DNA of 32,000 bases from an uncultured Alphaproteobacteria bacterium (GCA_963801875.1 CAWDGT010000004.1:459719-491718); one strand, 5' to 3'. Shown: positions 861-24,218, counted from the first letter of the stretch. A program made the numbers and translations. Notes: generated by a model from the sequence alone, not told the origin.

Positions 861-890
861 GGAGCAGACATTCGTCGAGCCGAACTCTGG

Positions 891-4522: not shown

Positions 4523-4531
4523 TCCGGTTGT

Positions 4532-4627
4532 GGCACTTTTGAGACATGCCGACGGTCCCCGAGCTTGTCTGTTCATTGGGGAAGACCGGAAGTGCCGCGG
4601 ACAGCATAGTCCGGTCGAGATTGACCC
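4532..4627 (+). repeat. REP-like composite repeat, diverged copy (A module 4532-4550, B-like 4587-4627)
   Basis: ggcacttttgagacatgcc matches the A module ggcacttttcggacatgg. cggaagtgccgcgg...gagattgaccc resembles the B module. Confidence 0.6.
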
Positions 4628-4735
4628 TAAGCAGACCTTGCTCGCCGCCGCCTCCACAAATGCAGCTTTGCCGCTCACACAGTCTTATGACAAAGTGTTA
4701 GATTGTTTGAGCTCGGCGTGATCCTTGGAGGGCAC

Positions 4736-5719: not shown

Positions 5720-5730
5720 TGTCGCCTATC

Positions 5731-5826
5731 GGCACTTTTCGGACATGGCGCGATGTCCGACTTGAGTCCGCTTTCGGGGGAATAGCGGAAGTCGCATTTC
5801 GGGGTCGTCAGGTCAGCTTTTGACCC
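5731..5826 (+). repeat. REP-like composite repeat, full-length copy (A + B modules)
   Basis: ggcacttttcggacatggcgcgatgtccgacttgagtccgctttcgggggaatagcggaagtcgcatttcggggtcgtcaggtcagcttttgaccc. The reverse complement of 15916..16010 is nearly identical over the whole length. Confidence 0.9.
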
Positions 5827-7252: not shown

Positions 7253-7309
7253 CAACCGGCCGATTAGAGAAGCGGACATCACCGGGGCAGTCGACATGCA
7301 CGATTCTTG

Positions 7310-7377
7310 CTCGTTCGCCCCCTTCCAGAATGAAGGTTTGGCCCGATAAGATGGCTTGTTGACCCTTGGGGGCGGAA
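7310..7377 (+). promoter_or_regulatory. conserved leader upstream of GAF kinase 2, with hairpin ccttc-N6-gaagg (7321..7336)
   Basis: Paralogous to 891..957. Confidence 0.35.
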
Positions 7378-9474
7378 ATGGCGCGGCCATCAAAAACGGG
7401 CGGCAAGACGAGCGGGGCGAAGGCCCGCAACGCAAAGCCAGCAAAGGGCCGCAAGACCACCAAGACCAAGCGCCGCATTGCACCAACGCCCATCCGAGTT
7501 AAGCGTCATTCGGTCTCCGGTCCGAGCAAAGACCTGAAGGACGCCCGCGCGCAGCAGACGGCGACGGCTGACATCCTGAAGGTCATCGCCAGCTCGCCGT
7601 CCGACGTGCAGCCGGTGTTCGAGGCCATTGCGGCCAGCGCAAACCGCCTTCTTGGCGGCTTCTCGACTTCGGTGTCCCGCTTCATCGATGGCATGGTGCA
7701 TCTTGCCGCCTTCACGCCGGTCAGCCCGACGGCTGATGCTGCTTTGAGGTCTACCTTCCCTGCACCGACGGCCGTCCTTCCAGCCTTCGTGCTCGCAGCG
7801 CGGGGAGAGCCAGCGCAGATCGCAGATACCGAAGCGCTCGCAGATGAGAGATTACTGGAGATTTCGCGTGCGCGCGGCTATCGCAGCGTGCTGTTTGTGC
7901 CTCTGATGAATGGGGGGCTGCCGATCGGTATGATCTCCGTCGCGCGCGTTGCGCCAGGTACATTTGCTCCCCACCACGTTCAACTACTCCGGACCTTTGC
8001 CGATCAGGCCGTGATCGCCATCGAAAACACGCGCCTGTTCAACGAGGTGCAGGAGCGCACCCGCGATCTGACCGAATCACTGGAACAGCAGACGGCTACC
8101 TCGGAGGTGCTCGAAGTCATCAGCGCTTCGACGGGTGAGCTGACGCCCGTCTTCCAGAAGATGCTGGAGAACGCGACCCGCGTTTGCGGCGCACAGTTCG
8201 GCGTGATGAACCTGTGGGACGGAAGCAAGTTCGACATGGTTGCGGATTACAACGTCCCGCCCGCCTTTCTGGCGCTCCGAAAAAGCATGCTGGTCACTCC
8301 GGACGCCACGCCTTCGTTCGAAAAGATCATCGAAACCCATCGCATCATTCAGATCGACGACGTGCGAACCAGCCCTGGATATCTCGCCGGCGCTCCACTC
8401 GCCGTCGGGATCGCTGACCTGGCGGCGGCCCGAACAATGATCGTCGTGCCGATGCTGAAGGAAGACGAACTTCTCGGCTTCATCATGATCTACCGTCAGG
8501 AAGTGAAGCCGTTCACCGAGAAGCAGGTCGCGTTGCTCGAGAACTTCACCAAGCAGGCCGTGATCGCTATTGAAAATGTTCGGCTGCTCAACGAGCTGCG
8601 CCAGCGCACGGACGACCTGACCGAATCACTCCACGATCTGCGCACCGCGCAGGATCGCCTGATCCAAACCGAGAAGCTCGCGTCGCTCGGCCAACTCACC
8701 GCGGGCATCGCGCACGAGATCAAGAACCCGCTCAACTTTGTCAATAACTTCTCGGCGCTGTCGGCGGAATTGACCGACGAGCTGAATGACGTGCTCAAAG
8801 CGGTCGTGCTCGACGACAACGTCCGGGGAGAAGTCGACGAATTGACGGGGATGCTGAAGGACAACCTAGAAAAGGTGGTCCTGCACGGCAAGCGCGCCGA
8901 CTCCATCGTCAAGAACATGCTGCTGCATTCGCGTGAAGGCTCCAGAGAACACCGGCCTGCGGATATCAATTCGCTTCTCGATGAGAGCCTCAATCTCGCC
9001 TATCACGGTGCGCGCGCAGAAAAAGGCGAGTTCAATATTACCCTGCAGCGCGACTTCGATGCGGACGCTGGTATAATCGAACTATTTCCGCAGGAGATCA
9101 CCCGGGCATTTCTCAATCTGATCGCGAACGGCGTCTATGCTGCGACTAGACGTAAGACCGAGGTTAAAGAGCATGATTTTGAGCCAACCCTCCGAGCCAC
9201 CACGAAGAACCTCGGAAGTACCGTGGAAATTCGCATCCGCGACAACGGTACCGGCATCCCGGTGGAAGTGCGAGAAAAGATGTTCAACCCGTTCTTCACG
9301 ACGAAGCCAGCCGGGGAAGGAACCGGCCTTGGGCTCTCGATGACGCACGACATCATCGTAAAGCAACACGGCGGCAGAATTGATGTCGCGACCGAACCTG
9401 GGCAGTTCACAGAATTTACTATCGTCCTGCCGAGGAAGAGCAATTTGTCAGGCGTGGATCGAGGTAAGACGTGA
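7378..9474 (+). CDS. GAF (2x) sensor histidine kinase with a Lys/Arg-rich N-terminal tail
   Basis: MARPSKTGGKTSGAKARNAKPAKGRKTTKTKRR tail, two QQTAT..L.VI GAF units, H-box AGIAHEIKNPLNFV, and HATPase_c (DNGTGIP, NPFFTTKPAGEGTGLGLS). The ATG at 7378 is preferred over the track start at 7366 by alignment with kinase 1. Confidence 0.9.
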   Translation: MARPSKTGGKTSGAKARNAKPAKGRKTTKTKRRIAPTPIRVKRHSVSGPSKDLKDARAQQTATADILKVIASSPSDVQPVFEAIAASANRLLGGFSTSVSRFIDGMVHLAAFTPVSPTADAALRSTFPAPTAVLPAFVLAARGEPAQIADTEALADERLLEISRARGYRSVLFVPLMNGGLPIGMISVARVAPGTFAPHHVQLLRTFADQAVIAIENTRLFNEVQERTRDLTESLEQQTATSEVLEVISASTGELTPVFQKMLENATRVCGAQFGVMNLWDGSKFDMVADYNVPPAFLALRKSMLVTPDATPSFEKIIETHRIIQIDDVRTSPGYLAGAPLAVGIADLAAARTMIVVPMLKEDELLGFIMIYRQEVKPFTEKQVALLENFTKQAVIAIENVRLLNELRQRTDDLTESLHDLRTAQDRLIQTEKLASLGQLTAGIAHEIKNPLNFVNNFSALSAELTDELNDVLKAVVLDDNVRGEVDELTGMLKDNLEKVVLHGKRADSIVKNMLLHSREGSREHRPADINSLLDESLNLAYHGARAEKGEFNITLQRDFDADAGIIELFPQEITRAFLNLIANGVYAATRRKTEVKEHDFEPTLRATTKNLGSTVEIRIRDNGTGIPVEVREKMFNPFFTTKPAGEGTGLGLSMTHDIIVKQHGGRIDVATEPGQFTEFTIVLPRKSNLSGVDRGKT

Positions 9475-9860
9475 GCATTCTGGTTCTTGTGGTAGACGAC
9501 GAGCCTGACGTCGAAGCGCTGTTCCGCCAGCAATTCCGGCGCGACCTGCGTGCGCAGCGCTTCGTCATGAACTTCGCCAGTTCAGCCGCGGATGCTCTAT
9601 CGCGCATCGCAGACCCCATCGAGGAGACCCTGATATTGATCCTCTCGGACATCAATATGCCCGGCATGACCGGGCTTGAGATGCTGCCAAAAGTCAGGGA
9701 AATGCGACCCGACGTTCCCATCATCATGATCACCGCCTACGGCGATCCCGAAACCAGGCGGAAGGCGATAGAAGGCGGCGCGACCGGGCTGCTGACTAAG
9801 CCCATCGACTTCACATTGCTTCGCGAAGAGATCGACGCGCGGCTGAGCCAGGCCGGTTGA
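9471..9860 (+). CDS. single-domain response regulator (CheY-like receiver)
   Basis: The GTG start overlaps the kinase stop (GTGA). VVDDEPD...ILSDINMPGMTGLE...IIMITAYGD...KP. It is a paralogue of 4133..4522. Confidence 0.9.
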   Translation: MSILVLVVDDEPDVEALFRQQFRRDLRAQRFVMNFASSAADALSRIADPIEETLILILSDINMPGMTGLEMLPKVREMRPDVPIIMITAYGDPETRRKAIEGGATGLLTKPIDFTLLREEIDARLSQAG

Positions 9861-9889
9861 CGGGTCTGTGGTTCGGGACTTCCGGTATT

Positions 9890-9983
9890 GGCACCGAACG
9901 GACATGGTTGGTTTGGCAGGTGACGTCCGCTTTCAGGGCAAACCGGAAGTCGCATTTCGGGGCTGTCAGGTCGCCTGTTGACC
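9890..9983 (+). repeat. REP-like composite repeat (A-like 9890-9907, B module 9944-9983)
   Basis: ggcaccgaacggacatgg ... cggaagtcgcatttcggggctgtcaggtcgcctgttgacc. Confidence 0.8.
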
Positions 9984-10163
9984 AAGGCGATCATGGCGCC
10001 TTCTGTCAGCACCGGCGACGGAGGCAGAAACGTCGCGGGCGAATACCTTGTCGCCGAACCGCTTGATTACTTCCATTTTGCCGAGGCGCCTGACTGGGTT
10101 TACGGGTTGGTGTTACAGCCCGATCCCGAAACAAGACCTGCTGCCTCGGTGAGGGAAATAGAC

Positions 10164-10385
10164 GTGGCACATCCATCGAAACGGAAGGGCAGCGGCTTCG
10201 AGCTGGAAGTGGTGAAGGTGCTGCAGGGCTACGCCATCGAAGCGGTGAAAATCCCGCTGTCGGGATCGGTGGCAGGCTTCGCCGGCGACATCGGTGCGGT
10301 GCTGACAAGGCAAGATATTTTGACTAACCTTCAATGCGGGCCATCAAGACGGGGTAGGACAGGGCCCACGAGAGGAGATCGATGA
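10164..10385 (+). pseudogene. possible remnant of an Hjc-like PD-(D/E)XK Holliday-junction resolvase (N-terminal half only)
   Basis: SKRKGSGFELEVVKVLQGYAIEAVKIPLSGSVAGFAGDIGAV fits the archaeal/phage Hjc pattern RKG-x3-E-x-E-hh-x-x-L-x3-G-x-x-hh-R/K-x3-SG-...-D-hh-A. The downstream E-x-K motif is missing, and coding-like composition stops near 10305. An in-frame GTG at 10164 follows GAGGGA. The track ORF starts at 9978, inside the repeat. Confidence 0.3.
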
Positions 10386-10825
10386 GCACAGTAAAAAGCG
10401 CTCTGGCCCAGAAGCGTGGCGCCCTGATCCATGTTCGTTCCGGCGACATGGTCGTCGAAGCCCTGCGCCAGATGCGCGAAAACCGGGTCCGGTCGGTGCT
10501 GGCAATCGACGACGACGTGCTGGTCGGTATCGTGACCCAGGGTGACTGCGCCATCAAAGTGCTGCTGCCCGGGCTCGATGCGAAGCAGACGCCCGTGGGC
10601 CAAGTGATGACGGGCAACCCGGTGACGGTCAAGCCGGACGATCGGCTGGAAGGCTGTATGGCAATGATGGCTGCGCGCGGTTTTCGCCATCTGCCAGTGC
10701 TGGACGCGGGCAAGGTCGTGGGCGTGATCTCGATCGGAGACGTCGTCAAGGACATCATCCGGGATTTGGAGCACAACGTGGGCGACCTGATGGGCTACAT
10801 CATGAGGGACGGCCCCGGGGGCTGA
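10382..10825 (+). CDS. CBS-pair domain protein
   Basis: Two CBS motifs: VRSVLAIDDDVLVGIVTQGD and GFRHLPVLDAGKVVGVISIGDVV. The size (147 aa) is typical. GAGGAG precedes the ATG. Confidence 0.9.
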   Translation: MSTVKSALAQKRGALIHVRSGDMVVEALRQMRENRVRSVLAIDDDVLVGIVTQGDCAIKVLLPGLDAKQTPVGQVMTGNPVTVKPDDRLEGCMAMMAARGFRHLPVLDAGKVVGVISIGDVVKDIIRDLEHNVGDLMGYIMRDGPGG

Positions 10826-11092
10826 CAGACGAACCGCGGTGCCGTCGCCGCGTCCGCGATCCTGCAGCGGCCCTAGTTCTTCTACAATTGAAAACCGCTC
10901 GCCGAGGTGGTCTAGCCGCCGCCACGCGAAGGGTAGTTTTCTCCTCTCGCGCAACAGACTTTGGTTCAGCCCGGCTCCTGCGGCCAGTTTTTTTACGTCA
11001 GCAATGCGTCAGGCGGTCGCCGCGATCGCCCGCTTCACCGTCATCGGATGCCACCGCCTAGTTAAGTGACCTGCTGAGAAATGACCGCTTGT

Positions 11093-11160
11093 GGCACTTT
11101 TCGGACATGCCGGTGCGGCCTGACGACGTCTGCTGTCGAGGGTAGAGCGGACATCGCGCG
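11093..11160 (+). repeat. REP-like repeat fragment (A module plus a gcggacatcgcg unit)
   Basis: ggcacttttcggacatgccggtgcgg...gagcggacatcgcgcg. A further isolated A module lies at 12083..12099 (ggcacttctcggacatg). Confidence 0.6.
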
Positions 11161-11433
11161 CGTCGCAGAGACTGCGGCATCCGTATGCTTCGACTCGCGC
11201 GCCGCCCGGTAGCACGTGCGCTTTCGAAAACAAAGATGGAGACCACCTTGACGCGACTTAGTAGGATTGTCTTGCACGAGAACATCATGGTCGCCGCGAC
11301 GGTCGCGATCGGCGCTTTTGTGTTTCGACCGAGACAATTGATCGGTTACGATCGGCTGCGATCTCAACCGGCGTGACGCGCCGTTCGAGATCCCAACGGA
11401 AATTTGGAAACTCAACTCAGGAGGAACGCCACA

Positions 11434-11838
11434 ATGACCGACAGCCCCTTGCGCGCCAAAGGTCGCGCGATGCGCCGCAATCTCATGGGCGCGGCCTACG
11501 CCGACAAGCTAGATCAGCAGCTCTACACCGATCCGATCATGGAGAAATTTGCGGCGCTGACGCAGGAGACGGTGTTCGGCACGCTGTGGACGAGGCCCGG
11601 GCTCGACCTCAAGACCAGGACGTTGATCTGCGTCGTCTCCGACACCGCAACAGGGCGGACCCCAGAGCTGAAACTGCATATCCGCTTTGCGTGTAACCAC
11701 GGCTGGACCGAGGACGAGCTCGTCGAGGCGATTCTGCACCTGCTCGGCTATGTCGGCGCGCCTCTTGTGCGCGAGGCGCTGCTAGTGGCGAAGGAGACCT
11801 TTGCGGAGATGCGTGCCGAGAATCCGGTCACGTCATAA
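11434..11838 (+). CDS. carboxymuconolactone decarboxylase (CMD, PF02627) family protein
   Basis: FGTLWTRPGLDLKTRTLICVVSDTATGRTPELKLHIRFACNHGWTEDELVEAILHLLGYVGAP is the CMD-fold signature. The ATG at 11434 follows AGGAGG (11418-11423). Confidence 0.85.
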   Translation: MTDSPLRAKGRAMRRNLMGAAYADKLDQQLYTDPIMEKFAALTQETVFGTLWTRPGLDLKTRTLICVVSDTATGRTPELKLHIRFACNHGWTEDELVEAILHLLGYVGAPLVREALLVAKETFAEMRAENPVTS

Positions 11839-12150
11839 CAGCGAGCTTGCAGTCCTGCACCACTTCGGGCGAGAAATGCTCAGCTAGAGTTTATTTGCAG
11901 TTTGACAAAAAGTAGACGACCGATCGCCCTCGCGCGCGCCCGGTTCTGACCCGGAAATGGCCGAGGCTGGAGGACATTGTAGGCATCTGTCGGCGCAAGT
12001 TAGCCGGCAAATGATCAAGATTTGATCGTCGCCTTGCCGTAAGGTGATTGAAAAGCTTGGGCAGTGAAAGTCCGTTACTGGCGGCACTTCTCGGACATGA
12101 ATTAGCCGTAACCACTGACTTGATGATGGCGGACTCGATTGACGAGGCAA

Positions 12151-12176
12151 CCGGGCGACGATCGCTCATCGCCCGG
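12151..12176 (-). terminator. candidate stem-loop just downstream of the 12186..12596 gene
   Basis: ccgggcga-N10-tcgcccgg is an 8-bp GC-rich stem starting 10 nt after the stop. There is no clear U-tract, so this is weak as an intrinsic terminator. Confidence 0.3.
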
Positions 12177-12185
12177 CCCTGACGA

Positions 12186-12596
12186 TCAAGCAGCCTTGCG
12201 AGCCTTGCCGATCGATCCGGACTTGGCAGCCTGACTCCCGGCACGGACTGCCGCGATCAGGGTGTCGATCACTGTCGGGAGTTTGTCCTTGGACGGGACC
12301 ACGATGCCGGCCTTGCCCTTCTCGAACTCGATGGGCTTGGCCCCGAACTTGACGGACATGACGACCTGGCCGGACGGGTCTGTCTTCCACCAGGGCCGGA
12401 CGGCCTGTTGTTTGGTGGTGGCCTGCCTTTCCCCGTTGACCTTGGTCCATCGCTGGATGGTCCGGACGTGGTTGGGGTCTTTCAGGAGCAGCTTCTGCTC
12501 CTCAAGCTTGGTGATGAACTTGGCCCGGCGTTGCTGGACCGGATCGTTCCCGGTCTTGGGAAGGGCGGTGAACGAGAGTGACTTGAGGACTGGCAT
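12186..12596 (-). CDS. hypothetical basic protein, DUF6641-like (family assignment from memory)
   Basis: Clean 136-aa ORF with good codon bias. PVQQRRAKFITKLEEQKLLL...RPWWKTD..G.VVMSVKFGAKPIEFEKGKAGIVV...LPTVIDTLIAAVRAG resembles a small protein family I recall from mobile islands. I cannot verify this without a search. Confidence 0.6.
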   Translation of the reverse strand: MPVLKSLSFTALPKTGNDPVQQRRAKFITKLEEQKLLLKDPNHVRTIQRWTKVNGERQATTKQQAVRPWWKTDPSGQVVMSVKFGAKPIEFEKGKAGIVVPSKDKLPTVIDTLIAAVRAGSQAAKSGSIGKARKAA

Positions 12597-12680
12597 GTAG
12601 GTTCTCCGTTGTTGGATGAAACCTCGCCGATCCTAATCACGTGCATGATACTGTACATAGCCCAGCCCAGGATTGTCGGG

Positions 12681-13592
12681 TTACCGATCCAATTCCTCGA
12701 GCAGGGTTCGGCCATATTCGTCAATTGTGACGTAGTCGTTTAGTAGCTGGCTATGAAATTCTACTTGGGGTAACTCCTCGTAAATTGAGTGCATCATTCC
12801 GGGCACGAATTGGCATAGCGTCAATTGTTTCGTCTTAACCTTCTCGTACTCCTCGGGACTGCTCCGCGAAGGCTCCTCCCATTTGGCCTTCTCTAGCTCC
12901 TCGTATTTCGCGACGTTCGCCTTTGGGACCACGTAGGGCGGAATGTAGAGGGGAATGCGATGCGCAAGTGAGTCCCGGAAGTCGATGAGGTTACCAAACC
13001 ACTTTTGCTTCTCGTCCAAATAATCTCGGAACTCCTTGGTGAGTTTGTTACGAATTTTTTTCTTGCCGAGTCCCACTTTTTTGGGATCGAGATCAGTACC
13101 GTCGCTGTTTTTGATATCTTTCTCCAGCACCCAAATCCAAGCGATATTATCCAGACATCCAAACGCATTCATCGTGAATGCTTGTATCGCTATTGTCGCG
13201 TCGATGACGTCATCACGCTCTGGAATCTCCTCCCTCTCCGGCGGTAAAAGATCGTAGACCAAATCTACTGTCCTTACGAGCGTTCCAAGCCGTCGGCAAA
13301 AGCCATGCTTGGCAAATTCTGCGCCGCGATTGGTTTTGTACGACCGCAAAAAAAATTTCTCCCGAAGATCTGCGTGCTGAGCATGCATCGCGTCCTGACC
13401 TACATGCAACTCCGCAAGGCGATTGTCTGAAAAATACCGCGTCATGCTATTCGGTCCTTCCATCGCTGGCAGAACGATTCGCGCCCCCTCGTTGAAGTAA
13501 GGCAACCGAAGCCATTTGCCTGATTCTACCAAATGAATTGATGATAGAATTACCCTTCTATCATCAGTTGATCCAAGCCATTGGGCTTCCAA
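12681..13592 (-). CDS. hypothetical protein with an R-x4-H (HEPN / Abi_2-like) motif; AT-rich foreign gene
   Basis: The long ORF lies in a visibly AT-rich segment. The motif FRDSLAHRIPLY is R-D-x-x-A-H-R. The start is uncertain: the TTG at 13592 is the track start, and ATGs at 13463 and 13445 are alternatives (the latter preceded by GAAGGA). Confidence 0.7.
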   Translation of the reverse strand: MEAQWLGSTDDRRVILSSIHLVESGKWLRLPYFNEGARIVLPAMEGPNSMTRYFSDNRLAELHVGQDAMHAQHADLREKFFLRSYKTNRGAEFAKHGFCRRLGTLVRTVDLVYDLLPPEREEIPERDDVIDATIAIQAFTMNAFGCLDNIAWIWVLEKDIKNSDGTDLDPKKVGLGKKKIRNKLTKEFRDYLDEKQKWFGNLIDFRDSLAHRIPLYIPPYVVPKANVAKYEELEKAKWEEPSRSSPEEYEKVKTKQLTLCQFVPGMMHSIYEELPQVEFHSQLLNDYVTIDEYGRTLLEELDR

Positions 13593-13682
13593 CTAATATT
13601 TCCCGTCGGCTATGTACGACCACTCCTGACTGATTACAGTCCAGCGTCCTGCAACTCGTAAATAACGGGATTGGAGGGCCAG

Positions 13683-14267
13683 ATGGCTTTAGCAAAGCAA
13701 GCGAAGACGTTGAGCAAGGGGCAGGTCGATGCCGTCTTGGGCTACTTGGCCAAGACCCGCTGGCCATCCAGGAACCGGGTCATCTTCCTGCTTTCGGTCA
13801 AGGCAGGCCTCCGGGCCAAGGAGATAGCAAGCCTGACCTGGAGGATGGTCACCGATGGGAGGGGCCAGATCGGCCAAGCCATCCTCCTGGAGAACAAGGC
13901 GAGCAAGGGTCAGTCCGGCCGGGTCATTCCGATGAACGAAGAACTCAGGACCGCGCTGGCCGAGTACTTCAAAACGGTCTACCCGCCGAACAGCACATTC
14001 TTGATCGAGAGCGAGAGGTCGAGGGGGATGTCAGCCCAAGCCGTCGTCAACCTGTTCTGGCGATGGTACCAGCACGTCGGCTTCGACGGGTGTTCGAGTC
14101 ACTCCGGAAGGCGCACCTTCATCACCAATACCGCCAGGAAGATCTCGACGGTGGGAGGATCGTTGCGGGACGTCCAGATGCTTGCCGGACACACGAACCT
14201 TCGAACCACGCAGCGCTACATCGAGGCCAATCCGGACGCTCAGGTCCGGATCGTCGAGTTAGTCTAG
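13683..14267 (+). CDS. short (194 aa) catalytic-domain-only tyrosine recombinase
   Basis: AGLRAKEI (Arg I), HSGRRTFITN (H-x-x-R) and LAGHTNLRTTQRYIE (His and the Tyr nucleophile) are present. The ATG at 13683 is 4 nt after GGAGGG. The track start is the TTG at 13671. No N-terminal arm-binding or core-binding extension is present. Confidence 0.9.
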   Translation: MALAKQAKTLSKGQVDAVLGYLAKTRWPSRNRVIFLLSVKAGLRAKEIASLTWRMVTDGRGQIGQAILLENKASKGQSGRVIPMNEELRTALAEYFKTVYPPNSTFLIESERSRGMSAQAVVNLFWRWYQHVGFDGCSSHSGRRTFITNTARKISTVGGSLRDVQMLAGHTNLRTTQRYIEANPDAQVRIVELV

Positions 14268-14947
14268 TGCATAGCTCCCCCGCGATGGTCGCAGTCCAAT
14301 GGGACGCTCGACTATTCGTAAGTATCCCAACATCTCAGTATCGACGCGACATGACAGCGTCCCGTAACCTCCTAGGTGTGAGGCACTGCGGAAACCCCGG
14401 TGGCCTGAGACACCGGTCGGAGCATCCGGGTCACCCTGACCTGATGCGTTCCTGGCAATGAACGACCAAAGCGGGCACGGTCGCTAAACCAAGCCCGACG
14501 AGAGACGGGAAAGCTTTAAACCGTCGAAGGGAGGCACGATCGTCGGATCGGTCGTGTCGCCAACTTTGCGCAGATAAGCAGAGGGGAAACGGGGCTCACC
14601 GCACTGCCGGTCCCGACCACCATCCGGTGGTTCCTCTGATCCGATGTTTCCGAAGCCGTTATACGCACGATTTCCGGATCGCTTCGCCTGCAAAGGGCGA
14701 AGTGTATCACTCAACCGTTTCCGCACACGCTGGCAGCCGAGCTGGTAGACTGCCGACCGGAAACCGGTCCGAGTTGGAAAAGCCTGAGGTCGCCCGAAGG
14801 GCGCTCACCCCAACGAAGTGAGGGTGAGTGGGTAAGGATCCTGATCGGTAAACTAGTCGGCTTTGTCCGACCAAATATGAACCCCGATACAAACCGCCGC
14901 TGTCAAGACTACTGGCAGTAGCGCCGGAGCTTTACCAACGCGCGCCG

Positions 14948-15139
14948 TCAGTGCGTTCGCGTCCCTGGCGGGTGAACGACTAGTTTTTCCTCGGCAAAAA
15001 ACTGGAGCGCGCCATATCCTTCCGTGTCAACAGCGTATCTAAGTTTGCCGTCAACTGTTGGGAACACTGCGATGACCGTGCCGCCCTCATGGTCGTTGGC
15101 TGCATTATCGACCTGCTCGCCAACTGCAAACTTCGACAT
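14948..15139 (-). CDS. small hypothetical protein (63 aa, probably an SH3-like beta-barrel)
   Basis: MSKFAVGEQVDNAANDHEGGTVIAVFPTVDGKLRYAVDTEGYGALQFFAEEKL. GAGGG lies 4-5 nt upstream of the ATG. The composition looks coding. Confidence 0.5.
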   Translation of the reverse strand: MSKFAVGEQVDNAANDHEGGTVIAVFPTVDGKLRYAVDTEGYGALQFFAEEKLVVHPPGTRTH

Positions 15140-15915
15140 CGCGCGCCCTCTGGAATTATCGAAACTTTAACGATTATCTTCACCAATTAGTCAACGCTTC
15201 GTTAATGACGGGTCCGGGCCGTGACAGTTCGGAGCATATTTGTGGTGCGATGTTCGATCATGAGATGCCGCTGTGGCATCCTGCACGTGGTAGCCGCATC
15301 CCGGCTCTGCAAGTTCGCGCCCCGGCTTCGACGAAACGAAAGTGGCCGCCAACCGAGCAACCTTACTTGTCTCGTTCACCTAGCGGGTTGCTGGTCGAGC
15401 GGTTGATAAAATGAAGTCTAGTGCAAGCCTGACAGACCACGGGTTTATGAGTTGTGCCCGTTGGATCGTCAGGCGCGTCTTCGAGCAAATGCTGCACGTT
15501 TAACCGGCCATTTCATCGTTAGGACAGCAACGCTGGCTTGATTAGCACCGTCGCCGGTGACACATGATAGATCATCGGGGATACGTTGGCCCCGACACGC
15601 TGGCAACGCATCGACTGCCTCATTCAATGATGGCTGTGCGTCCGGTGGCTAGCAGGCTCAGACTACGTTTCGGGCACCGCTCGGCGCAGCAAACCTCTAG
15701 GCAAACGCAACGCAACGGCATGAGCCGTCGAGGGAGACCTTGGCGGCTTTTGCGTGTGGACATGCAGCCAACGATAATCGGGATGAAGGTGTAGCCTAAC
15801 GCTAACCGGCCGACGTCAGCTATCCCCTCCGATAGCGACCAAATCCCGCAGGACAGCGAACGAAAAGGTGCCGGGACAGCGTCCAACACGATGATGGGAT
15901 CCGATGTTGGTTCCT

Positions 15916-16010
15916 GGGTAAAAGCGGACCTGACGGCCCCGAAATCCAATTTCCGCTTTACCCCCGAAAGCAGACTCATGTCGGACATCTCGCCATGTCC
16001 GAAAAGTGCC
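15916..16010 (-). repeat. REP-like composite repeat, full-length copy in reverse orientation
   Basis: The reverse complement reads ggcacttttcggacatggcgagatgtccgacatgagtctgctttcgggggtaaagcggaaattggatttcggggccgtcaggtccgcttttaccc, collinear with 5731..5826. Confidence 0.9.
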
Positions 16011-16011
16011 A

Positions 16012-17390
16012 TGTGTGGACGGCTCCGGATTGGCAAGGACTTTTTTCACGTCGCAGGCTTGGTCGGTGCAGCCATGTGTTCGGCCTTTAAGCGCGGTTCA
16101 CATGACCGCTGGCCATAATGCCCTCCGCGGATCAGGTCCCGGTCAAAACCGCGCATTCGATAGCAATGCGATGGCACAAGTGGGTTGTCCTGATCGCCGG
16201 ATCGACCGGCTCTGCATTACGTGCTGTTCGCCCTCCCAACCTTCACATCACGCCGGTTATCCGGCGCGATCTCGTTCACCGCGCTAGCGCGACAGGATTT
16301 CTATATCGCTCACCTTTGGCCATCATGGCCCAGGCCATCCGCGCAATCTTGTTGGCAAGCGCGATCGCGGCGACCTTTGTCGGGCGTCGACCTAGCAACG
16401 CCGTGAGCCAAGGCCGATGCCCGGTGCCATGGATCTTGGCATAGCGGATGACGGCGAGTGCTCCGGCCACGAACAGGCTCCGCAGATAGCGATCGCCCTG
16501 TTTACTGATGCTGCCGAGCCGCTCCTTGCCCCCACTTGAGTGCTGTTTGGGAACGAGCCCAATCCAGGCGGAGAAGTTACGTCCGGACCGGAAGGTTCTG
16601 GGATCGGCAACACTCGCAACCAGCGCAGTCGCCAGCATCGGGCCGACCCCAGGAATGTAATGAAGGCGCTTACTCGTCTGGTCGGACCGATGCCAGACCA
16701 GGATCATCCGATCGAACTCCAAAATCTGCTCCTTGAGAGCGAGCAGCTGGGTACCGAGCGCGGCAAGGCAGGCACGGGCAACCTCCGGCACCCGCTTGTC
16801 CTTCGGGTCGGCAACAATACGCAGCAATTCCGTGACCCCTTTGCGCCCGACCGGTGCGACAATGCCGAACTCGGCGAGATGCGCTCGGATCGAATTAATC
16901 ACCGCGGTCTGCTGACGGATGAATAGATGGCGTGTGCGATGAAGCATCAGACAACTCTGCTGCTCTGGCGTCTTGGTTGGCACGAACCGCATGTTGGCTC
17001 TGGTGACCGCTTCGCAAATCGCTTCTGCGTCGGCCATGTCGTTCTTCTGCCGTTTGACATAGGGCTTTACGTAAGCCGGCGGCATCAATCGCACGGTATG
17101 GCCAAGTGTCTGCAACTCGCGCGACCAATGGTGAGACGAGGCGCAAGCCTCGATGCCGACCAAGCAGGGTGGCAGCTTCTCAAAGAATGTCAGCACGTGG
17201 CGACGTTTCAACTGGCGGCGGATGACCACCTGGCCGGCGGCATCAACGCCGTGCACCTGGAACACCGACTTGGCGATGTCGAGACCGATTGTCGTGATCG
17301 TCTGCATGGACCTGCTCCTCTAAATCGTGGGAGCCTCAACAGCGCCCACATCCATGGCACTCATGTGCCGGTGGAGGAGCCGTCCACAGC
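16012..17390 (-). mobile_element. IS110-family insertion sequence #2 (~1.38 kb) with 13-bp terminal/subterminal inverted repeats
   Basis: tgtggacggctcc at 16014..16026 and its exact reverse complement ggagccgtccaca at 17376..17388 bracket the transposase gene. In gene orientation the 5' non-coding region is ~80 nt and the 3' non-coding region ~260 nt. Confidence 0.8.
16276..17307 (-). CDS. IS110-family transposase (a different lineage from 5953..6987)
   Basis: IGLDIAKSVFQVHGVD, LVGIEACASSHHW, KRQKNDMADAEAICEA, then YIPGVGPMLATALVASV...PKQHSSGGKERLGSISKQGDRYLRSLFV. Confidence 0.95.
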   Translation of the reverse strand: MQTITTIGLDIAKSVFQVHGVDAAGQVVIRRQLKRRHVLTFFEKLPPCLVGIEACASSHHWSRELQTLGHTVRLMPPAYVKPYVKRQKNDMADAEAICEAVTRANMRFVPTKTPEQQSCLMLHRTRHLFIRQQTAVINSIRAHLAEFGIVAPVGRKGVTELLRIVADPKDKRVPEVARACLAALGTQLLALKEQILEFDRMILVWHRSDQTSKRLHYIPGVGPMLATALVASVADPRTFRSGRNFSAWIGLVPKQHSSGGKERLGSISKQGDRYLRSLFVAGALAVIRYAKIHGTGHRPWLTALLGRRPTKVAAIALANKIARMAWAMMAKGERYRNPVALAR

Positions 17391-17428
17391 ATCACAACCG
17401 GACTCATGCACTGCAGCAAACAGCATCT

Positions 17429-18412
17429 CTATTCGATCACCTCGTCGGCACGGGCGAGCAGCGTCTGAGGTATAATGAGGCCGAGGCTCTTGGCCGTCTT
17501 GAGATTGAGGACCAGTTCGTATTTTGTCGGCGCTTGCACCGGCAGGTCAGCCGGTTTTGTTCCCTTCGGGATGCGATCCACATAGCCCGCCGCAAGTCGA
17601 AACTGGTCGACAAGGTCAGGCCCGTAGGAGACCAGGCCACCCTCGGCGGCGATGTAACTAAGCCCGTAGACCGCCGGCAGCTTGAACCGGGCCGCCAGTG
17701 TGACGATCAGATTGCGATGAATAGTCGCCGACGCGCTCGGCGTGACAATCAGGCCACCGTTTGGAGAGCCAGCAAAGGCCGCAACAGCGCGCCTAACTTC
17801 GTCGGCATTTTGCGTACCGACGGGGCTGATCTGAAGCCCGGACGACTGCGCCGCGGACTGGATGACGCCGAACATGGCAATTCCGGCCGGATTGGCAGCA
17901 TCGCGCAGTACCGCCACGCGTGTCACGCTGGGTGCAATCTGCTTCAGGAGTTCCAACCACTTTATGCTCAGACTGTATTCATAGATCATGAAGCCGGTGA
18001 CTTGACCGCCCGGTCGGGAAAGAGAGTCGACAAAGCCTGCGCCAACGGGATCGGTGACCGCCGCAAATACGATTGGCACGGTACGGCTCGCAATCTGCAC
18101 GGCCGTCACGCCCAAGGTTCCGCCTGCCAGCACAATATGCGGCGAGAGTGCGATCAGTTCGGCGGCATATTTGCGTTCAAGCTCGACATCGTCGGCGCCC
18201 CAGCGGGTCTCGATCCGCACGTTGCGACCGACCTCCCAACCAGCGTCTTGCAGCCCCTTTTGGAATGATGCAAGCCGGGCCTGGCCTTCCGGGTCGTCGG
18301 CTGCGCGGTTCATGAGTATGCCGATCAGCGGCACCGCCGACGACTGCGCACGCGCTGCAAGCGGCCATGCCACCGTGCTGCTGATAAACGTGATGAACTC
18401 GCGTCGCTGCAT
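17429..18412 (-). CDS. orphan ABC-transporter substrate-binding protein (PF04392-like), paralogue of 4736..5719
   Basis: MQRREFITFISSTVAWPLAARAQ, PIVFAAVTDPVGAGFVDSLSRPGGQVTG, KPADLPVQAPTKYELVLNLKTAKSLGLIIP...ADEVIE. Confidence 0.85.
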   Translation of the reverse strand: MQRREFITFISSTVAWPLAARAQSSAVPLIGILMNRAADDPEGQARLASFQKGLQDAGWEVGRNVRIETRWGADDVELERKYAAELIALSPHIVLAGGTLGVTAVQIASRTVPIVFAAVTDPVGAGFVDSLSRPGGQVTGFMIYEYSLSIKWLELLKQIAPSVTRVAVLRDAANPAGIAMFGVIQSAAQSSGLQISPVGTQNADEVRRAVAAFAGSPNGGLIVTPSASATIHRNLIVTLAARFKLPAVYGLSYIAAEGGLVSYGPDLVDQFRLAAGYVDRIPKGTKPADLPVQAPTKYELVLNLKTAKSLGLIIPQTLLARADEVIE

Positions 18413-18728
18413 GTACCTAAAACACGATTTTGTGGTCGTGTAAGCCTAGCACTTTGCGACCGGCCCGCGAGTGAGAAATGGCACAACTGATCTCAAATGC
18501 TGATAGCCCATATCCGGTTGGGGTCAATTGCTACCGGTGCAGGTCCTTCGGGCCATGTCCGGTCTACCCCCGTTAGCGACCGAACTGCGGACATTGCTGG
18601 AGGTCCGTTTGGTGCCACAAACGGACATCCAGACATTCTCTGGCTCGGGGCTAATCTTCAAAAAGGCGCGGACCCGACTTCTCAGAATTTTTCAGGCGTG
18701 TAGTCTCTCGTCCCCAGGAGGCTCTGGC

Positions 18729-20474
18729 TTGCCCACGGAGCGCGTAGAACGACGTTTAGCGGCCATCCTTGCGGCGGATGTGGCCGGCTACTCTCGGCTC
18801 ATGGAAGCCGACGAAGAAGGCACGCTCGCAAAGCTAAAGACCCATAGAAGAGAACTGATCGATCCGAAAATCACCGAGTTCGGAGGCCGTATCGTAAAGA
18901 CCACGGGCGACGGCCTGCTGGCGGAATTTGCGAGCGTCGTTGACGCTGTACGCTGCGCCGTTGAAGTGCAGAGAGGCATGGTCGAGCGCAATGGTTTGGT
19001 CCCGGAAAAGGAGCGTATCGAATTCCGGGTGGGCGTCCATCAAGGAGATATCATCAGCGATGCAGGGGATACCTTTGGCGACGCTGTGAACATCGCAGCC
19101 CGTCTGGAGGGGTTGTCTTTCCCCGGAGAGGTCTGCATATCATCCCGAGCGCAGGAAGATGCCGCCGGCAAGCTCGACGTGACCTTTGAAGATTTGGGGG
19201 TACAACATCTAAAGAACATCACTAAGCCGGTGAGAGTATATCGGATACAACCGGGTGGTGTTTCAACGCAGCCGGTGCAGCAGGCGCTGGCACTTCCCGA
19301 CAAGCCATCTATAGCTGTTCTGCCATTCGCCAATATGAGCGGTGATGTTGAGCAGGAATACTTCGTCGATGGTGTCTCCGAGGACATCATCACAGCCCTC
19401 TCGAAATTGCGTTGGTTTTTCGTTATCGCGCGTAATTCGTCATTCGTTTACAAGGGCAAGACAGTCGACATAAGGCAAGTCGGCCGCGAGTTGGGCGTGC
19501 GTTACGTGCTAGAGGGAAGCATAAGAAGATCGGGAGAACGAGTTCGCATAACCGCGCAGCTTATCGACGCTTCCACGGGTAACCATATCTGGGCAGATCG
19601 CTATGAAGGCGATAGCAATGACGTATTTGCACTGCAAGACAAGATAACTAACAGCGTTGTCGCCGCCATCGAACCGCGTCTCTTGGAAGCGGAAAGTGAC
19701 CGATCGCACAGCCGGACACCGGATGATATGCGTGCTTGGGACTTGTTGATGCAGGCCACCTCCCTTTTTTGGAGGCTAAACAAGACCGATGGCGAAGCTG
19801 CAATTTCCATTCTTGGGCGCGCTGTCAAACTTCATCCCGAATACGCGCCGGCACACAGCATGCTCGCGTTTGCGATGCTCTTACTTGGCTATCTTGGGTA
19901 CATCGAGCCCCAGGTGAAGGATGCCACCGCGCTTGCCGCCCGAGCTGCCGAGCTCGATCGGAACGACCCCTGGGCCTATGTCGCCCTTGGATTTGTCTCA
20001 TTCATCGAACGGCGCACCGATGAATCAATCGCCCACTTTGAGCGAGCGCTCAATCTCAATCCAAATTTTGCTGCCGCTCACGGCTATTTAGGTTGGACTC
20101 TGTCATTCGATGGACAATCGGACAAATCCATCGCGCACTCCCAGACAGCAATCCGCATGAGCCCGCACGACCCACAACAGGTAATATTTTATGGCGGAAT
20201 GGCAGCGGCCCACTATCTTGCTGGACGGTATGACGAAGCGATTAACAGCGCGCTTAGCGTGTTGCAATACCGGCCTACATTCAATGGAGCACGGCGGTTA
20301 CTTATATCCGCCTTGGCTCAAGCCGGCCGGCTCGATGAGGCGCGTACGGAACTAGAGCGGCTTAAGACCTTTCAGCCTGACATTTCGATTGCTTGGATAG
20401 AGAAGAACGTCCCGTATACGCCAGCCTCAATGGCCAAATATTTAGAAGGTTGGCACAAGGTGGGGCTTCGGTAG
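18729..20474 (+). CDS. class III adenylate/guanylate cyclase fused to a TolB-N-like/TPR C-terminal region
   Basis: RRLAAILAADVAGYSRLM...GGRIVKTTGDGLLAEF...FRVGVHQGD...GDAVNIAARLE is the cyclase homology domain. PSIAVLPFANMSGD..EYF.DG..EDIITALS follows, then TPR-like repeats. I prefer the TTG at 18729, 8 nt after AGGAGG (18715-18720). The track start at 18528 runs through REP-like repeat sequence. Confidence 0.85.
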   Translation: MPTERVERRLAAILAADVAGYSRLMEADEEGTLAKLKTHRRELIDPKITEFGGRIVKTTGDGLLAEFASVVDAVRCAVEVQRGMVERNGLVPEKERIEFRVGVHQGDIISDAGDTFGDAVNIAARLEGLSFPGEVCISSRAQEDAAGKLDVTFEDLGVQHLKNITKPVRVYRIQPGGVSTQPVQQALALPDKPSIAVLPFANMSGDVEQEYFVDGVSEDIITALSKLRWFFVIARNSSFVYKGKTVDIRQVGRELGVRYVLEGSIRRSGERVRITAQLIDASTGNHIWADRYEGDSNDVFALQDKITNSVVAAIEPRLLEAESDRSHSRTPDDMRAWDLLMQATSLFWRLNKTDGEAAISILGRAVKLHPEYAPAHSMLAFAMLLLGYLGYIEPQVKDATALAARAAELDRNDPWAYVALGFVSFIERRTDESIAHFERALNLNPNFAAAHGYLGWTLSFDGQSDKSIAHSQTAIRMSPHDPQQVIFYGGMAAAHYLAGRYDEAINSALSVLQYRPTFNGARRLLISALAQAGRLDEARTELERLKTFQPDISIAWIEKNVPYTPASMAKYLEGWHKVGLR

Positions 20475-20497
20475 TTTCAGGCCGCATGTCCGTTCTG

Positions 20498-20564
20498 GGT
20501 CAAAAGCTGAAAACCTCAATGCGAGCATATGTTTTCCGCTCTGCCCTCGATAGCGGACATCGCT
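20498..20564 (-). repeat. REP-like repeat, diverged copy in reverse orientation
   Basis: gggtcaaaagctga is the reverse complement of the B-module end tcagcttttgaccc. The copy ends with atagcggacatcgc. Confidence 0.6.
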
Positions 20565-20595
20565 GAACGCGATGGTCAATCCATCGTCAGGTGGC

Positions 20596-21339
20596 TTAGA
20601 TCTGGACCGCACAAATCAGCGCGTCTGGCGTCTCCCAAGACGCCAGCAATCCATGCTCGTAGGATTCGAAGATCTTCAATTGATTATCTATCGGCACCGA
20701 GCCTTCGGACGCTCCAGTGCTCAGCAGCAGTTCGATGTTTGAAATGGCCTGCGCCGCGGCTTCCGCCAAGGATGTTTCCAGCCAGCCAATCTGTGACGTG
20801 ACGGCCCTCACCCGGAACACTTCTTCGTCCGACAGGTTCACCGACATCGCTTGGGACTTCGCAAGCAATTTTGGAGCCATCAGTGCTCGGTCGTGACCTT
20901 CCACGCCGAGGAGTTCGTTCGCCAACATCCGGATTGCGAACGCACGGTCGAACGCGGGCTCGTCAGGTGTCACCGGAGGCGCTGTCCGGCGCCAGAAACT
21001 TGCCGTTCCCATGTCGAGGAGCGCGTCGAGGCCGAACCGGCTGAGGTAGTCGTGCGCGTCCGTCAGGGTGTCCATCCATTTTATAACAAGAGGTTTGGTC
21101 CAGCCCGACCGGCGGGCGAACTGCCGGATCGTCCGTTCGACCGTCGCTCTGTCAGGAGCACAACGGCACCGACCGATCCACTGGGCGCGTTCGAGGAGGG
21201 ATCGTGTCAGGGGATGCCATCCCTCGGAGCCCGACAAGTCAGGCTCAACGGGGCCGGGGCTGACGCCCTTTGCTCCGACGGCCCCGGTCAAGGCGGAGCA
21301 AATCGCACCTACCAATAATTGCCGACGGTCAACCTCCAT
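20596..21339 (-). CDS. hypothetical protein with a possible Tat-type signal (DRRQLLVGAICSALTGAVGA)
   Basis: 247-aa ORF with good codon bias. GGAGGGG lies upstream of the ATG. I recognise no family. Confidence 0.6.
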   Translation of the reverse strand: MEVDRRQLLVGAICSALTGAVGAKGVSPGPVEPDLSGSEGWHPLTRSLLERAQWIGRCRCAPDRATVERTIRQFARRSGWTKPLVIKWMDTLTDAHDYLSRFGLDALLDMGTASFWRRTAPPVTPDEPAFDRAFAIRMLANELLGVEGHDRALMAPKLLAKSQAMSVNLSDEEVFRVRAVTSQIGWLETSLAEAAAQAISNIELLLSTGASEGSVPIDNQLKIFESYEHGLLASWETPDALICAVQI

Positions 21340-21553
21340 CCAACCCCTCCGACCTTCCAGGAAGGCCGGCAGTAAACTGAAGTCCCAGGGAAGGACATGT
21401 GGGGTCAGCCCGGACTAAGAGACGGACGGGGCCGGCAAGGGAGCTAGTCCGCCTTCCTACGTACGTAATCCAGAGCCGAACTAGAGGATGCGAGTTCGTC
21501 GATCCGGCGGCTGGAGCATGTCGATCGACCTCTGCTTACCTGAAGTCTGACCG

Positions 21554-23260
21554 TCACCTTCGATCGAGCTTTCCCCCGCCACGATTTGTTGTTCGAAGCG
21601 GAGAGGATCCCACGGCCCGAACGGCCGCGTCACGGAATCCAACAGCAAAATAGCGCCGGGATTGATCGGGTTCGGCCGCGAGCCGTTGCATGTGAGCGAT
21701 CACATCATCTGCTCCTTCCCCCCCGATCTCTTGCAACTGGTCGATCGAACGCTGCATGGCCGGCTGAACCCCTCGCGGCGCGATCAACAACGTCTCGACC
21801 AAGACTCTAAGCCGGGAAGCGATCTGAGCACGGAGCTTGTACAGCTCATCCGATGGCGGCATCTGAAGCGCCTTCACAAGCGTCTTGATCTCTTCCCTGC
21901 TCGTGTAGAAGCGTGAAGTCCGGCCGCTGAAGTCCCGCTGCTCCGCCTCCTTCGACGCAAGATGCTTGGTCAGCTCCGATTGTTTTGCGGTAAGTTCGTT
22001 GAGCTTACCGGCAACGAACTCGGGCGGCCCGCCAGCCTTCAAGACCGCGTAGGTCTGTTCCATGAGCGCGGCGGTGGATGATAGCTCTCCGCGAATGGCC
22101 GACACCGCGTCCTCAAGCATCTTCCGCTTCCCCGCATCTTCATTTGCATTGATGATGCTTTCGAGGTCGAGTTCCTGAACGAACGCGAGAAACGAAGCCT
22201 CAAAATCCTGATACCGCCATCTCGTGGCGTCGCATCCCCGGCCCCGTTGGGCATTCCCACATACGAGGTAGGTGCCACCACGTGTCCCTGAGCCCTTGTT
22301 TTCGAATGCGATCGTAGAGTGGCAATACGCGCAGCGTGCCAACCCAGTGAAAAGGTTCGTGTAGCCGGGTCCCTTTCGACCAGCGCCCCCTATCCTTCGT
22401 TGCGACCGCGAATGCTGCGCCCGGAAGAACAACTCCTCTGAGACGATGGCTGGGAAGTAACCCGAGATGGGCGGTCCCTCCGGGACGCGCCTACCGTCTG
22501 CTTTGACGTGCGGCTGGAACTCGCCGAGGACGGCACGGTTCTCCAAAGTCTTGGCAAGGTACGATCTATGCCAGCCGTTTTTACCCACGAATGCAGGCAG
22601 CCCGGCCTTATTGAGCCGAGTGGCAATCGAGTACATTCCCAGGCCCGAAGCCGAGTCGGCAAAGATCTGGCGAACGGTTTCAACCCGTTCCGGAATAATC
22701 TCGTATGAACGACCATCTGGCGATAATCGAAGCCATGCCGGGCAACGGGCGGTCATGGGCTGACCTTCTGCTGCCTTTGTGCGCTTGTTCTTCCAAGCAG
22801 CGCCTACTCGCATACTCTTGGTCTTGGATTCCTCGTGAGCGCGCTCCATGATCACTAGCGAGGTGATCATGTCGACGAGGTTCGTGGTCTTGGCCCGATA
22901 GACCCGCTTGTCGGCGAGCGTGACGAGATTGATCCCAGCTTGCACGATACTGAGGAACAACGTGTGTGCCGGCAGAATTTCCTCTCGGCTGAGCCGGTCC
23001 AGCGATTCGACCAGAAGGTACGACCCACGTTCGACTGAACCTGCCTTCACGGCGGTCAAAAATTGACCCAGAGCTCCATCCCGGACGTTCGCGCCCTTGA
23101 AAGCGGAAATACCGATATCTTCGAGCCGCGCTTCATCTGCCAGCTCCAGCCCGTGCTCTTCCGCATAGGCCTCCGACGCTTCAAGTTGCCGCCGCCGGCT
23201 GTCCCCTTTGAGCTGGAGATCGGTCGACATACGGAGGTAGGAATAGGCGCGAGGCTTCAT
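21554..23260 (-). CDS. large serine recombinase (resolvase domain + recombinase domain + zinc ribbon + coiled coil)
   Basis: [16 protein letters not shown] carries the catalytic Ser motif, followed by [14 protein letters not shown], then [10 protein letters not shown]...[13 protein letters not shown] (zinc ribbon) and a long helical C-terminus. The ATG at 23260 is preferred. The track extension to 23419 overlaps comM-derived sequence. Confidence 0.9.
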
Positions 23261-23310
23261 CGTGTTAACCCAAAGAGAAGTACCTCTACTCGAAGTTGGG
23301 TTATTTGTAC

Positions 23311-24218
23311 ACGACATCTTGATGATCGGCTCGCCCGGCGCCGGCAAGTCGATGCTGGCAGCACGGCTGCCCTCGATCCTGCCGCCATTGTCGCCGTCCG
23401 AGCTTTTGGAAGTCTCCATGATCGCCTCCGTCGCCGGCGAAATCAGGGACGGCGCGCTGACGGCGCGACGGCCGTTCCGCAGCCCCCATCATTCGGCCAG
23501 CATGGCCGCGCTCACCGGCGGCGGCATGCGCGCAAGGCCCGGCGAGATCTCGCTGGCGCATCAGGGCGTGCTGTTTCTCGACGAACTGCCGGAGTTCGAT
23601 CCGCGCGTGCTGGATTCGCTGCGCCAGCCCTTTTAGAACGGCGAGGTCGCGGTCTCCCGCGCCAATCACCGCGTCACCTATCCGGCGCGCTTCATGCTGG
23701 TGGCGGCGATGAACCCCTGCCGCTGCGGCAACGCCTATGAGCCCGGTTTTTCCTGCAAGCGCGGACGGATCGATCGCTGCACATCCGATTATCAGGCGCG
23801 CATCTCCGGTCCCCTGATGGACCGCATCGATCTGCGCATCGAGGTCCCCGCGGTGGCTGCCTCCGATCTGATCCTGCCTCCATCGGCGGAAGGCTCGGCC
23901 GAAGTCGCCGCGCGCGTCGCCGCGGCGCGCGACATTCAGCTCACACGTTACGCCGCGATCGGATTGCGTGACATCCGCACCAATGCGGAAGCGCCGGCGT
24001 CGGTGCTGGAGACCATCGCGCAGCCCGATGCGCAGGGAACAAAACTGCTGCGCGAGGCCTCCGAGACCATGCGGCTGTCGGCGCGCGGCTATCATCGCGT
24101 GCTGCGCGTCGCGCGCACACTCGCCGATCTCGACGGCGCGGACAAGATCAGCCGGCTGCATCTGGCCGAAGCCCTGTCGTACCGCGCGCTTGCTGATGAC
24201 CTCAGGCGAGCGGCGTGA
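23311..24218 (+). pseudogene. comM: comM/yifB (Mg-chelatase-like AAA+ ATPase) 3' fragment lacking about the N-terminal 190 codons, with an in-frame TAG at 23634..23636
   Basis: [28 protein letters not shown] (Walker A), [11 protein letters not shown] (Walker B), [36 protein letters not shown], and ...ARGYHRVLRVARTLADLDG. Track ORFs 23262..23636 and 23694..24218 are in the same frame. The TAG sits where family members have Glu (P-L-E-x-G). Confidence 0.85.

Follow-up and report, generated by a model that had tools for sequence, protein, structure and literature searches.

A large serine recombinase beside a truncated comM gene: a probable junction of a degenerated genomic island in an uncultured alphaproteobacterium

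The DNA analyzed here, a stretch of 32,000 nucleotides from an uncultured alphaproteobacterium (hereafter the window; C4:459,719-491,718, that is, contig C4 of source genome G000), carries a gene for a large serine recombinase (LSR) beside the competence-helicase gene comM/yifB, which lacks its 5' part. We propose, with a probability of roughly 0.8, that this locus is the integrase-proximal junction of an LSR island, comprising a putative P arm, TT core, and B' arm, that entered comM in its Walker A region, within the Leu214 codon, and that this copy has since degenerated and become immobilized. The proposal draws on the domain content of the genes, the position and conservation of the junction, the absence of the comM 5' half from the assembly, synteny with related genomes, and a break in GC content. 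Feature coordinates are collected in Table 1.

Table 1. Features at and around the recombinase-comM junction (positions counted from the first nucleotide of the window)
Feature	Position	Strand	Description	Basis
LSR gene	21554..23260	minus	568 codons plus stop at 21554-21556	Pfam, PHROG, homolog alignment
Spacer between LSR start codon and putative P arm	23261..23296			Inverted repeat, junction comparison
Putative P arm, island-derived half-site	23297..23318		TGGGTTATTTGTACACGACATC	Motif and its distance from comM shared with relatives
Probable crossover dinucleotide TT	23319..23320		First two bases of comM Leu214 codon (TTG)	Comparison with relatives
comM/yifB 3' fragment, pseudogene	23321..24218	plus	Codons 214-512 of ortholog	Pfam, DNA identity, alignment
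In-frame TAG	23634-23636	plus	Replaces invariant Glu; preceding Leu changed to Phe	Alignment
Foreign block, right-hand 23.3 kb	1..23318		GC 0.58 versus 0.65 in flank	GC content, Pfam, synteny

The recombinase gene and its junction with comM

The open reading frame (ORF) listed for the recombinase spans 21554..23419 on the minus strand and encodes 621 amino acids (aa) from an upstream ATG at 23419. Because homologs (39-76% identity) align from residue 1 of a shorter, 568-aa product, we placed the start at the ATG at 23260-23258. This start lies 58 bp from the onset of comM, in agreement with an earlier note on this DNA, which had put it at 23260, close to the comM-like sequence. The protein matched the Pfam domains Resolvase (PF00239; E = 3e-16, residues 5-160), Recombinase (PF07508; E = 3e-14, residues 190-288), and Zn_ribbon_recom (PF13408; E = 6e-10, residues 303-361), as well as the integrase family phrog_95 of PHROG (1e-67). 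The catalytic Ser12 was found in YLRMSTDLQ, and D88, R89, and R92 in LDRLSR. Judging from these domains and motifs, the ORF looks intact. With its catalytic domain, its C-terminal domains, and an adjoining attachment (att) junction, the protein is by its sequence features a member of the LSR class, and recombination activity is predicted. It is the sole copy of its type in the 6.2-Mb, 14-contig assembly, and its best matches among phage LSRs did not exceed 38% identity.

The pairing of this recombinase with comM recurs in other genomes. In 200 genomes sampled evenly from the same family, with LSR relatives taken at E ≤ 1e-60 (39-76% identity), nine genomes carried a related LSR, and in eight of the nine it directly adjoined a comM fragment, with six breakpoints at comM residues 210-215 and two at residues 34-35. 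All five LSR loci identified in public genomes (59-74% identity) also lay against comM: those of Bradyrhizobium sp. McL0615, Afipia clevelandensis ATCC 49720, and one metagenome-assembled genome (MAG) at residue 211, and those of one Tardiphaga MAG and one further MAG at residues 33-35. Because 13 of the 14 related loci from other genomes directly adjoin a comM fragment, the position of the LSR beside comM is not a chance arrangement. Across these genomes the breakpoint fell at residues 210-215 in nine cases and at residues 33-35 in four. The four closest homologs (L021, L022, L025, and L048; 62-76% identity), from McL0615, A. clevelandensis, G233, and G035, meet comM at residue 210-211 and share the P-arm motif of the window. 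Five distant homologs (39-43% identity) adjoin comM at residues 211-215, and four others (49-61% identity) at residues 33-35. A related LSR may adjoin either the 5' or the 3' fragment of the gene.

Alignment to comM DNA of eight genomes of the same genus placed the onset of homology in the window at ∼23319-23321, with none to the left. On the island side, a motif common to the window and four related LSR loci, GGTTAWTTGTACA..., occurs once in the 92-kb region. The sequence beside comM reads GGGTTATTTGTACACGACATC in the window, CCGGTTAATTGTACATCATATT in Afipia, GGTTAATTGGGCACGACATC in G233, and ...TTAATTGTACATATATTT at the L025 locus. This sharing of both the arm motif and the comM breakpoint with relatives supports the earlier placement of attR within 23261..23320. 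The putative P arm and TT core together lie 37-60 bp from the LSR start codon. In the spacer, the motif CTACTC at 23287-23292 is conserved upstream of homologous LSR genes, and an 8-bp inverted repeat has its left arm, TAACCCAA, at 23266-23273 and its right arm, TTGGGTTA, at 23296-23303, overlapping the P arm. A promoter scan of the region upstream of the LSR scored no sigma-70-like site; as judged from this layout, the LSR promoter must lie either within these 58 bp or outside the island.

We infer that the crossover took place at the TT at 23319-23320, because the attL/attR pairs of Afipia, McL0615, G233, and G199 place the core there. In Afipia, attL (CACCTGTT/TATGTT...) and attR (...CATATT/TTGATGATC) overlap only in TT: with attL written as CACCTG-TT-TATGTTAGGGTCTAATAACCGG and attR as CCGGTTAATTGTACATCATATT-TT-GATGATCGG, the overlap with attB (CTG TTG ATG ATC) is likewise TT. 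For McL0615 and G233, attL and attR have the segment CTGATG in common, which begins, with CT, at the same position; the corresponding segment of the distant G199 element is TTGCTGA. The center of the comM attB in the intact ortholog reads CATCATCTG-TT-GATGATCGG, and an Afipia attP rebuilt from attL and attR has inverted ends of the type CCGGTTAAT / ATTAACCGG, ∼20 bp from the core.

The comM fragment contains the putative B' half-site (GATGATCGGCTCGCC...), the Walker A motif GSPGAGKS, and the Mg_chelatase_C domain, and it is 84-88% identical at the DNA level to comM of 18 same-genus genomes. Pfam matched Mg_chelatase at profile positions 22-205 together with Mg_chelatase_C; the N-terminal ChlI domain is missing. 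In the intact ortholog of 512 aa, HHLLMIG starts at residue 211. Since DNA homology to this ortholog begins inside the Leu214 codon, 213 comM codons are missing. The earlier observation that comM sequence starts at Walker A is therefore correct, but its figure of about 190 absent codons is too low. The same note had reported a TAG at 23634-23636 in place of a family Glu, and this residue (QPLENGEV) is indeed invariant in nine full-length relatives; a GTG at 23262, said to extend the frame, does open a 124-aa frame that runs into the comM fragment.

Decay of the fragment is real but at an early stage. At otherwise invariant positions the fragment has four changes of its own (L>F, E>stop, T>A, and P>S), as against 0-2 in same-genus orthologs, and there was no frameshift, so the description "decaying" holds in a mild form. 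Sequence errors are possible in this draft, but the TAG arises by substitution and not by a homopolymer indel. The comM-like ORFs at 23262-23636 and 23694-24218 are pieces of one pseudogene. A functional ComM/YifB joins the Lon-like N-terminal domain ChlI, the AAA+ domain Mg_chelatase, and Mg_chelatase_C in one frame; here ChlI is missing and the frame carries the TAG, and a search of the assembly found no second comM copy. Functional comM is lost in the source strain, most likely irreversibly. Separately, in three same-genus genomes (G012, G010, and G015; loci L006, L011, and L016), comM frames translated from the Walker A codon stop early, at 139, 131, and 80 codons, with no LSR seen adjoining; such stops may reflect errors in draft or MAG sequences, or comM may be decaying independently within the genus.

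The missing left junction and the extent of the foreign block

The earlier note had expected the 5' half of comM to mark a distant attL. That expectation failed: the 14-contig assembly yielded neither codons 1-213 nor a P' arm nor attL-proximal sequence. A tblastn search of the whole assembly with codons 1-238 of the intact ortholog (E ≤ 10) returned only the known 3' fragment, and an assembly-wide profile search for ChlI (PF13541) gave one weak match only, in a 486-aa open frame on another contig. On contig C4, fuzzy matching found no counterpart of the Afipia and Bradyrhizobium P' arms or of the window's reverse-complemented P arm, nor did arm-motif regular expressions detect a second arm in the 92-kb block. 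The hairpin GGGGACAATAG...CTATTGTCCCC, which follows attL in G233 and McL0615, is absent from the assembly, and 400 bp of attL-proximal sequence from three relatives found no match there by blastn-short. The only match of the arm-motif search, a weak AATAACCC at C4:453,773, was judged to be due to chance.

Both comM halves are kept in G031, G032, G034, G233, G199, G044, and G142, with islands of 5.5-42 kb between them; the source genome lacks this feature of a complete, excisable comM-targeting element. A parallel case of a stranded island was seen in G035 (L025/L033; MAG contig CAVYLU010000006.1), where the comM 3' fragment next to the LSR is itself disrupted, by a TAG and a break in the frame, and its 5' counterpart was not found.

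To the right of the junction, collinearity with a complete relative begins at C4:483,035. On the left, collinearity with three relatives holds only up to C4:392,760-392,764, the end of a gene read as gshB; the gshB-side resumption (C4:392,774) is ∼67 kb left of the window start, on the same contig as the comM fragment. Immediately past the gshB stop, the source genome ceases to resemble any of the relatives, and neither a promoter nor 5' coding sequence of comM follows. In relative G014, gshB directly precedes comM with ∼150 bp between them, compared with ∼90.3 kb in the source genome. GC content is 0.55-0.62 from ∼C4:395,000 to 483,318, versus 0.63-0.67 outside. The foreign block thus runs ∼67 kb beyond the left edge of the window, to C4:392,775, and the earlier suggestion that the island extends past position 1 is upheld by the point at which synteny resumes and by the low-GC block. 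For annotation, this means that ∼90 kb of the contig is foreign DNA. A quinone-oxidoreductase gene that follows gshB has no counterpart in the equivalent flanks of 11 relatives and for that reason is uninformative as to nativeness.

Within the window, the block encodes GAF histidine kinases, ABC substrate-binding proteins, two IS110 elements, DUF6641, a small tyrosine recombinase, a cyclase-TPR protein, and a 247-aa protein. A collinear module occurs twice in the block, at window positions ∼8,500-14,800 (C4:468.2-474.5 kb) and at C4:440,300-445,700, with 85-90% identity. Its order is a kinase C terminus/response regulator, DUF6641, a cargo slot, the small tyrosine recombinase, and a downstream non-coding stretch; in the left copy, the recombinase is interrupted by an IS5-family element. 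Three IS110 copies (89-98% identity, one inverted) lie in the block. Because DUF6641 and the small recombinase are also found in the Afipia, McL0615, and G034 islands, we regard them as shared LSR-island backbone, which comprises the LSR, a primase-helicase, the small tyrosine recombinase, and DUF6641. No virion structural, packaging, or lysis genes were found among ∼20 proteins scanned from part of the 90-kb block and the related Afipia island. The 247-aa ORF next to the LSR (window 20596-21339, minus strand) had no Pfam or PHROG match; a homolog (46% identical) is present in the McL0615 island, but not immediately beside that island's LSR, and this may be a conserved accessory gene.

Next to attL, related islands carry a gene for a protein of ∼1000 aa, assigned by PHROG to phrog_4913 (replication, origin-binding, primase-helicase); Pfam and PDB sequence searches with it matched nothing. 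Only two truncated, oppositely oriented pieces of this gene remain in the source genome, at C4:448,538-450,713 (L028:19539-20000 and L029:1-1714). The pieces meet at ∼C4:449,580 and overlap by ∼55-80 codons, the C-terminal third is absent, and the 522-aa ORF called at this position is chimeric. Beside them, where the two halves of the foreign block are separated by a stretch with few genes, a truncated ORF (C4:447,166-447,591; L028:18167-18592, minus strand) matches Pfam DNA_pol_B_exo2 only in its C-terminal region (positions 112-186 of 213).

LSRs recombine attP with attB unidirectionally, and excision needs a recombination directionality factor (RDF). According to the biochemistry established for LSRs, the island in circular form, carrying attP, would have been bound by LSR dimers, as would an attB of ∼40-50 bp inside comM; both sites would have been cut at the central dinucleotide, rotated, and religated. 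This would have split comM, leaving its 5' part on the attL side and its 3' part on the attR side, beside the integrase gene. A later rearrangement or deletion may then have removed the attL junction, the 213 5' codons of comM, and the gshB-comM intergenic region. The replication module would have been damaged, IS110 and IS5 elements would have accumulated, and the orphaned comM 3' fragment would have begun to decay with the TAG. Because only one att junction is left, the island is most likely fixed, with an intact LSR that has no partner site.

Alternative readings and known comM-targeting systems

Several points weigh against a single island stranded in this way. The 14-contig assembly is a draft and 95.5% complete, and a relocated comM 5' part with attL could lie in unassembled sequence. 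The 90-kb block is possibly not a single element, given the two copies of its module (85-90% identical). Moreover, attR is 33-35 kb away from the fragments of the replication gene, so that the LSR island itself may span only ∼35 kb.

Because the replication fragments lie at this distance and the module is duplicated, an LSR island of ∼35 kb beside older foreign DNA is suggested. The block would then be composite or tandem, with the LSR island by comM and, leftward of it, an older related island or foreign DNA of another kind; the deletion of attL and the comM 5' part would have taken place at the boundary. We hold this to be a serious possibility, though short of even odds. It would account for the collinear duplication with its IS5 insertion in the left copy and for the presence of homologs of the relatives' attL-proximal replication gene at C4:448.5-450.7 kb rather than far to the left, and it agrees with the size of the relatives' islands, just 5.5-42 kb. 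However, the genome has only one LSR, neither a hybrid att site nor a second P or P' arm was found between the parts, and GC content is uniformly low over the whole block. The composite arrangement is a refinement of the explanation favored here and not an exclusive alternative to it.

We consider it improbable that the island is still intact and mobile, with attL and the comM 5' part moved by an insertion sequence (IS)-mediated inversion or translocation or residing in the unassembled ∼4.5% of the genome. The incomplete draft leaves room for such an arrangement, the three IS110 copies, one of them inverted, could mediate rearrangement, and the LSR ORF is intact. On the other side, gshB and the comM 3' fragment share a contig, and the DNA separating them contains no comM 5' sequence, the P' arm and attL-proximal sequence are on no contig, and the replication gene is scrambled. 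In addition, the stop in comM means that excision would not yield a working gene, which suggests that selection for reversibility has lapsed. That the truncation was an independent 5' deletion, with the LSR merely nearby, is effectively refuted and was rejected, since, although the comM 5' part is really deleted and the gshB-comM interval is also variable in G005 and G012, the breakpoint matches, to the base pair, the attR junctions of at least four related islands of independent origin, which retain both comM halves and bear the same P-arm motif, and 13 of 14 homologous LSR loci in other genomes adjoin comM.

An LSR island stranded in comM can be compared with several known systems. In Listeria phages A118 and phi10403S, a serine integrase inserts into comK, and excision can restore the gene. 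There, as here, a large serine integrase splits a competence gene; in those systems, however, the target is the regulator comK, the host belongs to another phylum, and the element is a true prophage, and in the source strain restoration is no longer possible. Resistance islands of the AbaR/Tn6022 type in comM of Acinetobacter baumannii are Tn7-like, with Tni transposition proteins and target-site duplications, and disruption of comM in that species has reportedly been discussed in the literature. Both they and the present element interrupt comM with a large accessory island, with loss of ComM function, but the junction described here carries an LSR and LSR-type half-sites.

The closest published parallels involve LSRs. 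Magnesium chelatase/ATP-dependent protease homologs are targeted by 12.4% of predicted site-specific LSRs, and LSR targets overall are enriched in DNA competence genes (Durrant et al. 2022, PMC10083194). Because comM-targeting LSRs have thus been published, this locus is a further member of a described group. In common with those elements (PMC10083194), it has a three-domain LSR at the element edge and integration inside comM-family coding sequence, and LSRs of diverse lineages converge on this gene; a core of TT has been described there for a multi-targeting LSR and is proposed here. It differs from them (PMC10083194) in that it has neither the second junction nor the target's 5' part, because of which this copy would be unrecoverable by the attL/attR comparison of that catalog, and in that related LSRs use two sites in comM, at codons ∼34 and ∼214. 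In phage WO of Wolbachia, another alphaproteobacterial host, the LSR of sr1WO integrates into a magnesium chelatase (comM-family) gene, the gene halves flank the element, and in some copies rearrangement has separated the halves (PMC9203015). The present element differs from the sr1WO prophages in that neither the window nor the related Afipia island of 18 kb showed any phage structural genes, and in that the shared backbone here is the LSR, primase-helicase, small tyrosine recombinase, and DUF6641. The locus thus offers a clear end state of a very common integrase-target pair, in which an att site and the replication gene are lost, the integrase ORF is intact, and the element appears fixed. 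The attL/attR pairs of A. clevelandensis ATCC 49720, McL0615, G233, and G199 may be useful in mining LSRs for genome engineering, as may the existence of two alternative sites within one gene.

Use of two comM sites by related recombinases

The two sites lie at codon ∼34 (AFAIVGLPD; L023, L024, L049, and L050) and codon ∼214 (HHLLMIGSPG; the window, L021, L022, and L048). Their B' half-sites are alike (ATCGTCGGCCTGCCCG versus GATGATCGGCTCGCCCG), at ∼72% identity (13 of 18 nucleotides) in a hand alignment. In a tree of 14 LSR sequences, a small sample with an arbitrary midpoint root, the clade of the window, which uses the first site, falls inside a grade using the second, itself nested inside deeper lineages using the first.

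A further feature was noted in the two closest relatives, G233 (L057 ∼1410-1500) and McL0615 (L031/L021, at the equivalent place with respect to the LSR start), where a complete attP-like palindrome, CCGGTTAATTGTACACATTATT-TT-GATGTCATGTCCAATTAACCGG, precedes the real attR. It is unsplit and lies between the LSR start codon and attR, and a second P arm then follows, fused to comM. It is absent in the window and in Afipia; the window has only the 8-bp inverted repeat at 23266-23273 / 23296-23303. The palindrome could be an integrase operator or the scar of a nested element. The difference between the two cores (TT versus CT) argues against a simple tandem insertion in G233 and McL0615. A tentative interpretation of these sequence comparisons, which we think rather doubtful, is that an LSR clade of the Nitrobacteraceae has been retargeted repeatedly between comM codons ∼214 and ∼34, with the palindrome a possible autoregulatory operator and the repeat in the window its remnant. 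If this were true, these loci would form a natural series for studying the retargeting of LSR half-site recognition.

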